In this document: positions 5,076 to 35,840 of the stretch, in pieces | Numbering within the stretch: position 1 is the first letter of the stretch | Layout of the letters: every line of letters starts with the position of its first letter | Position numbers and translations under genes: made by a program | Origin: Acinetobacter phage ZZ1 | Sequence record: NC_018087.3 | DNA length: 64,000 bases | Reading direction: 5' to 3' (one strand) | Notes under the pieces: generated by a model | Seen by the model: the letters and a program-made list of their open reading frames with translations, nothing else | The model's database searches: none | Told to the model about the DNA's origin: nothing

Positions 5076-5110
5076 AAAAAAGGGAACTAATTTGTTCCCT
5101 TTTTTTCTTT
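5076..5110. terminator. bidirectional intrinsic terminator (agggaac/gttccct hairpin between A- and T-runs)
   Basis: perfect 7-bp stem flanked by AAAAA and TTTTTTT. Confidence 0.5.
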
Positions 5111-5527
5111 TGCCTTTCGGCGTCCTTCCAACATACGAGTGTGCCAAAATTTATAAAATTCTGGGTCTTGCAATTTCTCTTGGAGGACTTGTGACGCTTT
5201 AATATTGCGTTCACGAATTAATTCAGTTGAATTGGTGGCATTTACATAATCGAACCCACCAAGGCCACCTAATTTAATGTTATATGAGTTCGGATTTGAG
5301 ACCAAATCGGCATCGACTAACTCCTTTTCGTGTTCATACATTGCGTCTTGGGTATCGTGATATTTTATAATTTCTTTTGTGAAATTATGAATACCATATT
5401 TTTTAATTGCCCGTTTAATAATTGTACCTGAGCCCATATAACCATCATCTAAATTGGATGTTTTATGAGCCCCGATATAAAAATGACCATTAACGTTGTT
5501 AGTGATCTTGTATGTGTAATAAAACAT
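5087..5527 (-). CDS. GIY-YIG homing endonuclease (Seg-like)
   Basis: N-terminus YYTYKITNNVNGHFYIGAH carries a GIY-YIG motif. 146 aa. T-even phages carry seg genes in this region. Confidence 0.65.
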   Translation of the reverse strand: MFYYTYKITNNVNGHFYIGAHKTSNLDDGYMGSGTIIKRAIKKYGIHNFTKEIIKYHDTQDAMYEHEKELVDADLVSNPNSYNIKLGGLGGFDYVNATNSTELIRERNIKASQVLQEKLQDPEFYKFWHTRMLEGRRKAKEKKGTN

Positions 5528-8161: not shown

Positions 8162-8392
8162 TTATTGAATTACTGCAGTAGGTGTATAAAAATTAGATAA
8201 TACACTTAAAATCTTATCTAATTCAACTAATGCATGATATCGATTTTTATAAACTGATCTATGTTCGGTACATTCAACTTTGATACCAGTTGAAATATGA
8301 GTAACTCGAACACCTCTATCGGGCGTATTAACCCAATTACTATGTTTGCCTACTCTAAATGTATCAATTCTAATATCAGAAGGTAGTAGCAT
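8162..8392 (-). CDS. class-I release factor domain-3 (GGQ domain) homolog with GGQ replaced by HSN
   Basis: 76 aa MLLPSDIRIDTFRVGKHSNWVNTPDRGVRVTHISTGIKVECTEHRSVYKNRYHALVEL. It aligns with the RF1 block [69 protein letters not shown], ERS and KN are conserved, but the catalytic GGQ is absent. An RBS GAGG sits 8 nt upstream. Confidence 0.6.
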   Translation of the reverse strand: MLLPSDIRIDTFRVGKHSNWVNTPDRGVRVTHISTGIKVECTEHRSVYKNRYHALVELDKILSVLSNFYTPTAVIQ

Positions 8393-10934: not shown

Positions 10935-11155
10935 AATAAATTCCTCTATTCAAAATAAACTTTATGTGATCATTATATCATTAAATTATGAAAAGCAACT
11001 TAATTACTAATCATGTCCAACTTTTTTATTACATAATATACAAGTAGATTCTTTAGAATAATAACCCATATCATTTAACATTCTAGCTGTATATGAATCA
11101 TTATCTTTAGTTACTTGATAATAATGTTTGCAAAATAACTGTTTGAAGAACTTAA

Positions 11156-11398
11156 TCATTTAAGACGCACCTTGGCTTCAAAAACAAATCTGTATTCATC
11201 ATCCGTCAAAACTTTGGCTCGTTCATAAGAAGTTGCCATTCTTAAAACGGCACCAGTATATGATACAATTGCAAAAACACAATTTTTAGAATCTTTATTG
11301 GCAATTTCACCAACTTTAAATCTAAATTTTTTATACGTATATTTATTATCATACGTACATAAAAATTGTGCTAAATTTTTAGAAAATGTAAATCTCAT
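11156..11398 (-). CDS. hypothetical protein
   Basis: 80-aa ORF. A further ~50-aa minus ORF (11007..11159, TAG stop) overlaps its stop as ATGA. Confidence 0.4.
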   Translation of the reverse strand: MRFTFSKNLAQFLCTYDNKYTYKKFRFKVGEIANKDSKNCVFAIVSYTGAVLRMATSYERAKVLTDDEYRFVFEAKVRLK

Positions 11399-11676: not shown

Positions 11677-11753
11677 TGGAGACGCCGGATGGATTCGAAC
11701 CCTCATCGACGCGGATTTGCAATCCGCCGCATAACCAATTCTGCCACGACGTC
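11677..11753 (-). tRNA. tRNA-Cys (anticodon GCA)
   Basis: Anticodon stem gcgga/tccgc with loop ttGCAaa. Acceptor gacgtcg pairs with one G-U. One mismatch each in the T and D stems. Confidence 0.55.
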
Positions 11754-11944
11754 ATAAAATTTATTAAATGCAAGCAACTTCCTCAGTTTCCCCTGGCTAC
11801 CACACCAGTGCATTAAAGTTTCATTTATCTAGCATGACAGTCCCTGCAGTGACCAACATATTCAATAAAATTATTCAAAACTACATTTTCGGGAGCGACC
11901 CTATTCACTTCGTTTTTATATGCTATACTTGCTCTAATAAATCT

Positions 11945-12021
<77 letters not shown>

Positions 12022-12026
12022 AAAAA

Positions 12027-12102
12027 TGGTCCGCCTGACAGGATTCGAACCTGTGTGAGTCGCAATAGAACTACGATGCCTAATCCATTCGGCCACAGAC
12101 GG
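12027..12102 (-). tRNA. tRNA-Arg (anticodon UCU)
   Basis: T arm acagg/cctgt. Anticodon stem tcgta/tgcga with loop gtTCTat. Confidence 0.6.
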
Positions 12103-12195
12103 ATGTTTGGTGGAAAAGACAAGAATTGCACTTGCATATCCAGGAGTTATTAAGTTCCCGGGCGTTCACTTTGTTTCGCCACTTTCCCATAAATT

Positions 12196-12269
12196 TGGTC
12201 GTTCAGGACGGATTCGAACCGTCACACAGAGTTTTAGGGACTCCTGGTCTACCGTTAACCTACTGAACG
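12196..12269 (-). tRNA. tRNA with anticodon CUA (candidate amber suppressor; C at position 33)
   Basis: Sense strand cgttcag-ta-ggtt-aacggta-gacc-a-ggagt-ccCTAaa-actct-gtgt-gacgg-ttcgaat-ccgtc-ctgaacg-a-cca. Perfect acceptor and T stems. The 7-nt anticodon loop ccctaaa places CUA at positions 34-36. Confidence 0.5.
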
Positions 12270-12465
12270 AAACCCGCTAAAATAAAGCGGGAGTTGATCA
12301 AGTTACGCATTATCAAGAGGCTATTGATCCATGAAAATAAAATTACTTGACCATCCTGGCAGATTTGTTGGAATTCCACCAACTATCTCCATCATATCTA
12401 AGATGGCATTCTAATCTTGAACTATAATCCACTAGGTCAAAGTAACTTTTAAATGATAACGAATA

Positions 12466-12557
12466 TTGATGGGACTCGAACCACATATCAACCGGGTTTA
12501 ACAGGCCGGTTATGCTCCAGTATCAGGCGCAAGCTTAACCAATTAGCTACTAATTCA
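12466..12557 (-). ncRNA. aberrant tRNA-like element (good D and T arms, disrupted anticodon and acceptor)
   Basis: D arm agct-aattggtta-agct. T arm with a bulged U (atg(t)gg-ttcgagt-cccat). No clean anticodon stem. An extra hairpin aaccgg-N10-ccggtt is present. Confidence 0.3.
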
Positions 12558-12566
12558 TTATCATTT

Positions 12567-12599
12567 AAAAGTTACCTCTTAATTGAGGTAACTGAGGTA
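12567..12599 (-). terminator. hairpin terminator downstream of gene 12602..12859
   Basis: 9-bp stem agttacctc/gaggtaact with loop ttaatt. Confidence 0.4.
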
Positions 12600-12601
12600 A
12601 T

Positions 12602-12859
12602 TTAAGCAGTTGCTTCAACTAAACCTAATTTAACAGCGTTTTCATAATCTACCATTTCAATTGCATCCATGATAGTGTCAAAATCTTCATTGACAGCAGT
12701 TTGAATAATATCGCCATTACGTGCTTCAAATGTTACCGCTACTACACCGTTTTCATATTGAACTAGGCCGCGGATTTTAGCTGCATCAAGAGCAAAACGT
12801 GCAATATTAGTAGCTTGTGGTACGTCTTTACGAACAGATAAAGAAATGCGAGTTGCCAT
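12602..12859 (-). CDS. hypothetical protein
   Basis: 85-aa ORF. Confidence 0.45.
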   Translation of the reverse strand: MATRISLSVRKDVPQATNIARFALDAAKIRGLVQYENGVVAVTFEARNGDIIQTAVNEDFDTIMDAIEMVDYENAVKLGLVEATA

Positions 12860-12894
12860 GATGTTTTCCTTTAAGGTTTAATTTACAAAAATAT

Positions 12895-13116
12895 TTATAC
12901 AGCAGTTTTTCTATTTTGACGAAAATCAATAATAGAAGAAATAAATGCAAAAATCATTGAGATGCCAATAAATTTCAATGAAGTAAATCCCATTGTTTTA
13001 ATTTCAGCATTTGTCATAAAAATACCAAAAATAGCCGTTGCTAATGCAACTAACATACCTACAGCAAAAATGCTATAACCTACTTTGTTAAAGAACTCTA
13101 CAGATTTGGTTTTCAT
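12895..13116 (-). CDS. small membrane protein
   Basis: 73 aa with two hydrophobic helices. Confidence 0.4.
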   Translation of the reverse strand: MKTKSVEFFNKVGYSIFAVGMLVALATAIFGIFMTNAEIKTMGFTSLKFIGISMIFAFISSIIDFRQNRKTAV

Positions 13117-13204: not shown

Positions 13205-13660
13205 TTATTTTTCAGGAGACCAATCTAAATCTAAATCCTCAACATATTCATGCGTGGCGCCGATTGAAATTTTAAACTCCAATTTAGGCTTTGCCATCGC
13301 CCCAATATCATATGCTAATGTAATATGAGGTTGATAATCCGGAAAATCATAAGTTGCACCCAATGCTTGTGCATATGCAAAACGAGAGTGCAAATAAGGT
13401 GAATCTAGTAATAACACAAGGGCTCGTTTGCCGTTATGTTCAAATATTTCAAAGTCTTTAGCATATGCAATAATACCAAGATTGTCCATTGGTTTAAATG
13501 GAACAAACACACGAGAATAGCATATTGTAGAATGTAATTTATCGCGAGGTGTTGCATCAAATAACTTTAATTTATCTTGTAAATCGCATAAAGCATCTAA
13601 TGTGTCATTACTAAATTTGACCGCAGCATATGTACCACGGTCAAGTTGACTAAATTTCAT
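13205..13660 (-). CDS. 57B: 2H phosphoesterase-family protein (two H-x-T/S motifs), at the T4 57B position
   Basis: KLHSTICYS and QPHITLAYD motifs lie ~70 aa apart in a 151-aa protein. Synteny places it immediately upstream of 57A and gene 1. Confidence 0.5.
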   Translation of the reverse strand: MKFSQLDRGTYAAVKFSNDTLDALCDLQDKLKLFDATPRDKLHSTICYSRVFVPFKPMDNLGIIAYAKDFEIFEHNGKRALVLLLDSPYLHSRFAYAQALGATYDFPDYQPHITLAYDIGAMAKPKLEFKISIGATHEYVEDLDLDWSPEK

Positions 13661-35017: not shown

Positions 35018-35840
35018 ATTTTTGGTCACTGGTACAACTCCTCTCTCCGTCGCTATTGTGTTTTAATGGGTGATTTATTCTCTCATGTACAAAGTAATGC
35101 GTCGGAGAGAAGGTGATAAAATAGAATTAATTAAAGTCCCTATTACATTTGCTTCAAAAGAACGCTTTATTATGAAACTAGATGCAAAAACATCAGTTAA
35201 TAATGGAGATGGTTCTATGGCAAAAGTGGAAACAATTTTGCCAAGAATGTGCTTAAGCTTGGTAGATTTAGTATATAACCCAACATATAAAACAAATATA
35301 ACAAACAGAACTATCAGGAATCCTGCGAGTAAAACCTCATTAATTTCGCAATATAATCCGGTTCCGGTTAAAATGATTTTTGAGTTAAGTGTTTACACTC
35401 GACATCAGGATGATATGTTTCAAATTATTGAACAAATATGGCCATATTTTCAACCACATTTTTCAACCCAAATGAAAGAATTGCATGGCAATGATATTAC
35501 ATTTGATAGAAATATCAGAGTTACAATGCAGTCGGTGGCCTTAGATAATCAATTAGAAACAGACAAAACTACACGACGCCGATTGGAAACTGCTTTTATA
35601 TTTGAAGTTAATGGGTGGTTATACCCACCTGTTGCTGAAATTGCTGGTGAAATTCGTACAATTTATATTGATCTTTTTGCAAATGAAAAAGAGTTAAATG
35701 CCTCAGGACGCTTTGAATCGGTTGACACTCAAGTATCGCCAGAAGATATAGATTATAATGATTGGGACGGTAATCTTATACAGTCAGTTTCGGCCAATGT
35801 TCCTATTCCTGTTGCACCTGAACCACCTCACCCAAGGTAG
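35018..35840 (+). CDS. 15: gp15 tail sheath stabiliser/terminator. Apparent ATT start and a +1 frameshift near 35090-35096.
   Basis: Frame 2 from 35018 (ATT, RBS AAGGAG 7 nt upstream) encodes [25 protein letters not shown]. This matches T4 gp15 MFGYFYNSSFRRYATLMGDLFSNIQ and then hits a stop. Frame 0 (track ORF 35070..35840) continues [20 protein letters not shown], matching the T4 run ending in VPITYASKE. Confidence 0.6.

Follow-up and report, generated by a model that had tools for sequence, protein, structure and literature searches.

Why lytic phages that use the standard genetic code carry suppressor tRNAs is a puzzle, and the leading idea is that such tRNAs are a first step to stop-codon recoding. 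A path has been proposed for low-GC phages that leads from low GC through rare TAG and a suppressor tRNA to recoding (bioRxiv 10.1101/2021.08.26.457843). tRNAs with the anticodon CUA that are labelled 'tRNA-Pyl' also occur in the tRNA clusters of other standard-code phages, among them 44 of the 55 mycobacteriophages with such clusters (Morgado & Vicente 2019, PMC6409571). For Acinetobacter phage ZZ1, the genome paper lists 'ZZ1t008 Sup (CTA) 76196-76269, 74 bp' among eight tRNA genes, names 'Pyl (CTA)' of phage Acj9 as its sole homologue, and is silent on its function and on the C at position 33 of its anticodon loop (C33) (PMC4177764, 2014). Here we analyzed this CUA tRNA gene in a 64,000-nt stretch of the ZZ1 genome (NC_018087.3; hereafter the window), which corresponds to phage nt 64001-128000; the published coordinates equal those of the window plus 64000 (e.g., Trp at 73037-73108; PMC4177764). 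The gene itself is already known, having been published as a predicted suppressor tRNA, and we demonstrate no new mechanism. What we add is descriptive, namely subfamily-wide conservation with covariation, three tRNA bodies at one genomic position, C33 as a novelty of the ZZ1 lineage, and the lack of recoding and of conserved TAG stops.

ZZ1 resembles the crAss-like, Lak, and Agate phages (bioRxiv 10.1101/2021.08.26.457843) in being a lytic, low-GC phage of a standard-code host, with a CUA tRNA and TAG as the rarest stop. As in those phages, no matching synthetase is encoded, and therefore a host enzyme must charge the tRNA. Unlike them, ZZ1 and its relatives have no in-frame TAG, and reading TAG as sense does not raise their coding density; the RF-like gene of ZZ1 is a 76-aa fragment without the GGQ motif and not a full release factor 2 (RF2). 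By analogy, ZZ1 would match the stage of the low-GC recoding model at which a suppressor has been acquired and the code is unchanged. Like the mycobacteriophage CUA tRNAs, the ZZ1 gene was found by ARAGORN in a phage tRNA cluster, has had no functional study, and is of a kind commonly mislabelled Pyl (PMC6409571); unlike them, it comes from another host and phage family with no homology shown, and it adds C33 and conservation at one position across a subfamily. It shares CUA followed by A37 with the Escherichia coli suppressors supE (tRNA-Gln CUA) and su7 (tRNA-Trp CUA), but differs from both (U1-A72 or A1-U72, G73) in having C1-G72, A73, U3-A70, and C33. Moreover, supE and su7 are mutant host alleles, whereas the CUA tRNA of ZZ1 appears to be a phage gene kept by selection. 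Our best explanation, which we consider probable, is that the gene encodes a selected, host-charged UAG decoder, probably weakened by C33, that acts on host UAG stops or chance amber mutations and not on programmed phage codons. A preliminary description of the stretch had already read the element as a candidate amber suppressor; predictors, TAG rarity, and covariation bear this out, and suppressor activity itself stays at the level of a prediction. The gene was located as follows:

12196-12269, minus strand: CUA tRNA gene ZZ1t008, 'Sup (CTA)' (ARAGORN, Rfam RF00005, minimum-free-energy fold, covariation, PMC4177764 Table 2)

ARAGORN placed a 74-nt tRNA with anticodon cta at exactly these coordinates on the minus strand, a strand that the preliminary description had left unstated. 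The Rfam tRNA model RF00005 matched at 59.6 bits (gathering score 29; E = 2.3e-10 for the whole 64-kb window) over 12199-12269, a full-length match (model positions 1-71) with zero non-canonical pairs flagged. Both the minimum-free-energy and the centroid fold are a cloverleaf with acceptor, D, anticodon, and T stems of 7, 4, 5, and 5 bp, read as CGUUCAG-UA-GGUU-AACGGUA-GACC-A-GGAGU-CCCUAAA-ACUCU-GUGU-GACGG-UUCGAAU-CCGUC-CUGAACG-A-CCA. The anticodon loop is the canonical 7-mer CCCUAAA (C32-C33-C34-U35-A36-A37-A38), with C32 at 12239, C33 at 12238, and CUA at 12237-12235 on the minus strand, followed by A37 and A38. The ends carry C1-G72, the discriminator A73, and an encoded 3' CCA, and U8, A14, G18G19, and the T-loop UUCGAAU are kept. 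The preliminary description had proposed this cloverleaf, with perfect 7-bp acceptor and 5-bp T stems, and this loop, with CUA at positions 34-36 after C33, and had named another register, an 8-nt loop, or a pseudogene call as what would speak against it. ARAGORN and Rfam, two independent tools, agree on the register with CUA at 34-36 in a 7-nt loop, and neither gave an alternative register, an 8-nt loop, or a pseudogene call. The decoding loop departs from the canonical form (U33 and a purine at 37) in that A37 is present and position 33 is C. These results confirm that 12196-12269 is a genuine tRNA gene of phage ZZ1 whose anticodon pairs with the UAG stop codon.

The homologues of this gene in related phages are labelled tRNA-Pyl, tRNA-TERM, or tRNA-Sup-CTA in GenBank, and the first label, also used by ARAGORN and carried by many records, raises the reading that the molecule is a tRNA-Pyl or the decoder of a TAG-recoded (code 15) phage gene set. 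A tRNA-Pyl is recognized by an anticodon stem of 6 bp, a variable loop of 3 nt, a single nucleotide separating the acceptor and D stems, a small D-loop that lacks G18G19, an unusual T-loop, and G73, in a system that has pylS. The ZZ1 tRNA shows none of these structural traits: its acceptor and D stems are separated by U8-A9, its D-loop has 7 nt and contains GG, its anticodon stem has 5 bp and its variable loop 4 nt, and it carries the T-loop UUCGAAU and A73; the label reflects the CUA anticodon alone. The recoding half of this reading, with the low GC content of the window (34.7%) in its favour, is taken up with stop-codon use below; as a whole, we find the Pyl or recoding explanation hardly credible.

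The tRNA region of ZZ1 is 98.6% identical to that of Acinetobacter phage Henu6 (Zedzedvirus zz1), which served as the whole-genome proxy for ZZ1. Three independent isolates (ZZ1, Henu6, and W16) have exactly the same CUA tRNA sequence, which excludes a sequencing error as the source of C33. The same body recurs in diverged homologues (type A) in Acj9 and in the Hadassahvirus phages AbTZA1, Maestro, Morttis, AB-Navy71, PhT2-v2, Bhz15, Minot, Mokit, Melin, and BRC001. In an alignment of the five distinct type-A sequences (ZZ1 type, AbTZA1, Minot, Bhz15, and Acj9), standard pairs made up 96.2% of pair cells, and both-sided changes were detected in 10 of the 21 stem pairs, a number reached by 0 of 500 shuffles; the signal collapsed when the pairing partners were slid. 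CUA, A37, A38, C1-G72, and A73 were invariant across type A. The 10 compensatory pairs across genera therefore show that the CUA tRNA is under selection.

Conservation extends beyond this body. At the same genomic position, the Lazarusvirus phage KARL-1 carries a CUA tRNA with a different body (A1-U72; ARAGORN), matched at 95.8% identity or more in about 39 further Lazarusvirus records; a third body, marked by G1-C72 and a bulge in the acceptor stem, occurs at that position in PhT2 and AB1I1M-1. KARL-1, PhT2, and AB1I1M-1 have the anticodon arm GAGAC-CUCUAAA-GUCUU in common, with the loop CUCUAAA and A73 in each, so that the loop C-(U/C)-CUA-A-A and A73 are constant across all three bodies. 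The CUA tRNA is thus found in the Twarogvirinae (T4-like Acinetobacter phages) in at least four genera, with at least three bodies, at one genomic position, and in about 60 database records in total (GenBank/RefSeq duplicates counted). In a wider search for homologues, a pattern scan of IMG/VR returned just the Acj9 and AbTZA1 copies and unrelated tRNA-Gln(CUG) genes, a metagenome scan for homologues gave five chance matches and no tRNAs, and a genome scan yielded alphaproteobacterial tRNA-Gln and one tRNA-Trp, with no Acinetobacter match and no CUA tRNA. As a side observation on KARL-1 (MH713599.1, 107422-107496), ARAGORN finds CUA ('Pyl'), Met, Cys, Leu, Thr, Ser, and Trp tRNAs, and the GenBank record annotates no tRNA at 107422-107496; the published 'Phe' tRNA of KARL-1 is probably the CUA tRNA.

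ZZ1 follows the standard code, and the CUA tRNA hardly affects the phage itself. TAG terminates 3 of 84 open reading frames (ORFs) of the window in a first gene call and 4 of 87 in a second (TAA 62-64, TGA 19, TAG 3-4 overall, by simple ORF-based calling). Stops number 170 TAA, 67 TGA, and 11 TAG in Henu6 (TAG in 11 of 248 genes, 4.4%) and 151 TAA, 79 TGA, and 17 TAG in KARL-1. The preliminary description was right that TAG is rare and that gp15 and one small ORF use it, but it overlooked a third, Seg/GIY-YIG-like ORF:

35085-35840: gp15, TAG-ended ORF, next in-frame stop after 2 codons
11007-11159: TAG-ended 50-aa ORF, next stop after 0 codons (TAA directly)
5087-5527: TAG-ended Seg/GIY-YIG-like ORF, next stop after 16 codons

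Henu6 has a coding density of 92.80% with the standard code, and treating TAG as sense shifts it to 92.86% (248 vs. 249 genes); no in-frame TAG was found within genes of the Henu6 genome or the window. Those window ORFs that lengthen when TAG is read are out-of-frame upstream runs with several TAGs or overlap tRNA genes. The flat coding density and the artefactual extensions rule out TAG recoding (code 15).

We further compared stop codons in 173 reciprocal-best orthologue pairs of Henu6 and KARL-1. TAG was kept in both phages in none of the 10 TAG-involving pairs, whereas TGA was kept in 31 of 74 (Fisher p = 0.007), a comparison of small numbers and without a suppressor-free control genome; KARL-1 is ruled out as such a control because it carries a CUA tRNA of its own. 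Judged from these two genomes, TAG stops appear to turn over fast, with no conserved read-through site, and this rapid turnover is consistent with poor termination at TAG in these phages. With the standard code, about 4% TAG, no in-frame TAG, and no TAG conserved between genera, the tRNA therefore stands outside any phage recoding programme. Programmed read-through was likewise rejected, as TAG stops are unconserved in the 173 pairs and the window TAGs run into early stops. Read-through of the 50-aa ORF (11007-11159) into the in-frame downstream 189-aa ORF is precluded by the immediate TAA and more stops, and that of gp15 would add merely 2 codons. The sole candidate read-through fusion of the Henu6 genome lies outside the window (MK240351.1, 88412-89212), where a TAG-ended 96-aa ORF (88922-89212) is in frame with a 166-aa ORF (88412-88912) across the junction TAG GAG AAG GTT ATG, with no intervening stop. 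This junction is probably coincidental, its TAG lying within a TAGGAG Shine-Dalgarno sequence.

Regarding amino-acid identity, several features of the ZZ1 tRNA are Gln-like, namely the 74-nt length, the 7-nt D-loop A-R-C-G-G-U-A, a D-arm identical to that of alphaproteobacterial-type tRNA-Gln(CUG), G10, and G2-C71. Counterparts of the D-arm UAGGUUAACGGUAGACC and of the 74-nt architecture occur in tRNA-Gln(CUG) genes of IMG/VR contigs and of Hyphomicrobiaceae and Paracoccaceae genomes; the D-arm pattern is also matched by one Terriglobia tRNA-Trp. Among the tRNA sets of related Acinetobacter phages, the nearest overall is Ile(GAU), at identities of just 62-73% and with Gln and Thr also near the top. 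The Ile(GAU) acceptor stem (CGUCGA...UCGACG-A) is nearly that of the Hadassahvirus suppressor, and the 74-nt tRNA-Gln(UUG) of phage 133 has its anticodon stem and part of its acceptor stem in common with the CUA tRNA. Derivation from a Gln or Leu tRNA, as the preliminary description suggested, thus looks ambiguous by overall similarity. In E. coli, GlnRS identity resides in a weak U1-A72, G73, G2-C71, G3-C70, G10, and U35; U35 in a CUA anticodon draws GlnRS, and U35 together with A73 draws LysRS. Measured against the GlnRS set, the ZZ1 tRNA has G10, G2-C71, U35, and a Gln-type D-arm, but C1-G72, A73, and U3-A70. The 1-72 pair varies by body (C-G, A-U, or G-C), with A73 and the anticodon loop constant, and by the E. 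coli rules this three-body pattern would fit LysRS at least as well as GlnRS.

If the CUA tRNA is a selected UAG decoder, it would be transcribed with the neighbouring minus-strand phage tRNAs and processed to a 74-nt tRNA ending in the encoded CCA. A host aminoacyl-tRNA synthetase, likeliest that for Gln or Lys by the established identity rules, would charge it, and the charged tRNA would compete with RF1 at UAG and cause partial read-through. In the ZZ1 lineage, the change from U33 to C33 would weaken decoding without abolishing it. The effects may then fall on host mRNAs ending in UAG or on the rescue of chance amber mutations.

Several observations weigh against this explanation, C33 among them. 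U33 is near-invariant in elongator tRNAs, the cited exceptions to U33 being eukaryotic initiator tRNAs (C33) and the Candida CUG-decoding tRNA-Ser (G33) (PMC5041475, PMC11122139), and its loss could cripple decoding. No codon was seen that would benefit, as the three window TAG ORFs reach their next stop after 0, 2, and 16 codons, and a backup stop near TAG (7 of 11, vs. 90 of 237 other stops) is not significantly enriched in Henu6 (p = 0.084). The gene is also dispensable, since phage fHyAci03 lost it when the 5' half of the suppressor became fused to the 3' half of tRNA-Met, and a scan of phage 133, confined to the tRNA region of its genome, turned up no CUA tRNA. No clear promoter was found directly upstream, where there are just 9-of-12 sigma-70-like matches and a terminator-like hairpin, and the isotype signals conflict (Gln-like D-arm vs. 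Ile-like acceptor stem). The fusion in fHyAci03 lies in NC_049438.1 76992-77432 (about 211-290 of that piece), has ACTCGTGTAGCTCAATGGTAGAGCAG as its 5' half, and is labelled 'tRNA-Met, possible truncation' in RefSeq.

Some of these points would equally be expected if the ZZ1 copy were a decaying or neutral passenger, inactivated or nearly so by the U33-to-C33 change in Zedzedvirus and carried along with the tRNA region, for example through homing-endonuclease-driven inheritance. C33 is confined to the three ZZ1-type isolates and every other member read has U33, and C33 is therefore derived and specific to the ZZ1 lineage. The tRNA can be lost, is needed by no phage codon, and lies in a polymorphic region full of Seg-like homing endonucleases. 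On the other hand, the ZZ1 lineage shows compensatory substitution of two anticodon-stem pairs (28-42 and 31-39) and a G27-U43 pair where relatives have an A-G mismatch, and these changes, with a perfect cloverleaf, argue that the RNA is still under structural selection. All nucleotides of the tertiary interactions and the CCA are intact as well. Bare et al. (Nature 1983) are reported to have found that substitution of U33 in a yeast amber suppressor left suppression in vitro unabolished. Taken together, we regard a passenger as unlikely, and C33 probably weakens decoding in ZZ1 without abolishing it, which would leave an attenuated but working decoder. A possible analogue is the Candida tRNA-Ser(CAG) with G33, which is likewise a rare elongator without U33 and changes codon meaning (PMC5041475), although it is eukaryotic and concerns sense-to-sense reassignment. 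By this analogy, a residue other than U33 might tune an ambiguous decoder.

The surroundings of the gene bear on a further explanation, and contain the following features:

12273-12291, minus strand: GC-rich hairpin CCCGCU-UUAUUUU-AGCGGG followed by UUU (terminator-like match, sequence read)
12425-12585, minus strand: structured RNA (four-phage alignment and consensus fold, nine pairs with compensatory changes)
12111-12188, minus strand: tRNA-like element (Rfam tRNA 34.4 bits; uncalled by ARAGORN)
11677-12102, minus strand: tRNA sub-cluster of Arg(UCU) 12027-12102, Met(CAU) 11945-12021, and Cys(GCA) 11677-11753 (ARAGORN, Rfam)

In the structured RNA at 12425-12585, an outer stem of about 24 bp (GAGGUAACUUUU...AAAAGUUACUUU) surrounds a four-way body that resembles a tRNA and is built of D, anticodon-like, long variable, and T arms (covariation set: ZZ1, AbTZA1, Minot, and Acj9). 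All type-A relatives have this RNA upstream of the CUA tRNA, and in AbTZA1 and Acj9 the two directly abut; KARL-1, fHyAci03, and AB1I1M-1 have the outer hairpin without the tRNA-like insert. Rfam gave no match to this RNA, and ARAGORN calls the Acj9 copy only, as a 93-nt tRNA-Tyr(GUA). The short hairpin at 12273-12291 sits 3 nt upstream of the 5' end of the CUA tRNA and is identical in Henu6, whereas AbTZA1, Acj9, and KARL-1 are without it and have the CUA tRNA directly after the long hairpin; the short hairpin could act as a leader, in processing, or by weakly terminating transcripts from upstream. In the element at 12111-12188, the anticodon loop ACUUAAUAAC spans 10 nt, the T-loop UGCAAUU is atypical, and the CCA is encoded. 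This element is missing from the near-identical Henu6, where tRNA-Arg follows 6 nt after the CUA tRNA; a longer relative, whose T-arm is GGAGGUGCAAGCACUCC, is present in AbTZA1 and fHyAci03. The 12111-12188 element is probably either a degenerate tRNA or a small RNA that does not decode.

A location among such non-canonical tRNA-like RNAs (12111-12188 and 12425-12585) suits a role other than decoding, in which a host defence nuclease that attacks tRNAs would meet the RNA as a decoy or replacement substrate, or the RNA would help to regulate or process the tRNA operon, with CUA incidental or chosen as matching no sense codon. Phage tRNAs are known to counter anticodon nucleases via anticodon-loop changes (PMC10264068), C33 is a change in that loop, and again no phage codon needs the tRNA. 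We nevertheless hold such a role to be quite improbable. CUA, A37, and A38 are invariant over at least three tRNA bodies while the stems diverge, as expected of selection for codon reading. Moreover, charging and EF-Tu binding require a certain form of the acceptor stem, A73, CCA, and T-loop, and this form is preserved; no defence system with a CUA tRNA as its known target was found.

For the selected decoder, expression with its neighbours is plausible. On the minus strand the order of the run is the CUA tRNA first, then the 12111-12188 element, Arg, Met, and Cys, and spacing and strand suggest that the CUA tRNA is probably co-transcribed with the Arg, Met, and Cys tRNAs. A T4-type late-promoter motif, TATAAATA, occurs at 12892-12899 on the same strand, about 630 nt upstream of the CUA tRNA and 33 nt upstream of the ATG of an 85-aa ORF (12602-12859); given the AT-richness of the genome, several copies of the motif would be expected to arise by chance alone. 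In Henu6 (L001 4827-5489), a Seg-like GIY-YIG homing endonuclease lies between tRNA-Met and tRNA-Arg, which are 5 nt apart in the window (12021-12027), and this insertion therefore marks the tRNA region as a hotspot of endonuclease-associated polymorphism. Elsewhere in the window, a 151-aa ORF (13205-13660, minus strand) strongly matches the anti-CBASS protein Acb1 (Pfam PF23474, 1.1e-49), and its counterparts in relatives are annotated 'RNA ligase' or 57B.

IMG/VR contigs also hold a 74-nt tRNA with the 8-nt anticodon loop GUUAAAAG, for which ARAGORN gives 'anticodon taaa':

L007, 1768-1841: 8-nt-loop tRNA
L018, 2031-2104: 8-nt-loop tRNA
L020, 3023-3096: 8-nt-loop tRNA
L021, 11258-11331: 8-nt-loop tRNA
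L024, 902-975: 8-nt-loop tRNA

All five contigs also bear large tRNA clusters, and L021 adds a 91-nt CUA tRNA. These 8-nt-loop tRNAs could be ochre-type or quadruplet decoders.

The preliminary description had also pointed to a GGQ-less RF-like gene in the same region, and this gene was located here:

8162-8392, minus strand: RF1 domain-3-like fragment of 76 aa, 3.8 kb from the CUA tRNA (tblastn, Pfam RF-1, PDB matches)

It was found by tblastn with the 'RF-1 domain' proteins of AbTZA1 and Acj9, matches Pfam RF-1 at 3e-10, has RF1 as its best PDB matches, and reads GKHSNW opposite GAGGQH of RF1, which bears out the description of it as GGQ-less. The gene occurs throughout the Acinetobacter T4-like phages (about 65 records) and also in Pseudomonas phages of about 43 kb (73 and TehO) and in Xanthomonas phages; annotations elsewhere are RF-1 domain protein, peptidyl-tRNA hydrolase, or prfB. 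Phages of this roughly 43-kb Pseudomonas and Xanthomonas type are expected to be without tRNA genes, though no tRNA scan of them was made, and the presence of the RF-like gene in them speaks against an obligatory pairing with the CUA tRNA. Co-occurrence of the two holds within the Acinetobacter clade only and is confounded by shared ancestry. It is possible, as a speculation, that they are functionally related and jointly weaken termination. A bolder form of this idea, which we put forward as a conjecture with rather low odds of being right, holds that UAG decoding is a conserved, selected trait of the Twarogvirinae, that the CUA tRNA and the GGQ-less RF1 mimic form a termination-tampering module that would weaken RF1-dependent UAG termination, and that C33 in ZZ1 would be adaptive, through attenuation or nuclease evasion.

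ZZ1 and its relatives are available in culture and infect A. baumannii, a pathogen amenable to genetics, and they offer a natural set of variants (U33 vs. C33, three tRNA bodies, and the loss in fHyAci03) that could reveal UAG suppression, the inserted residue, and the effects on host and phage. As these phages are candidates for phage therapy, a functional suppressor tRNA would bear on their annotation and safety description. If the conjectured module is real, it would serve the Twarogvirinae either by damaging host protein output or defence in the infected cell, or by buffering these phages against amber mutations.

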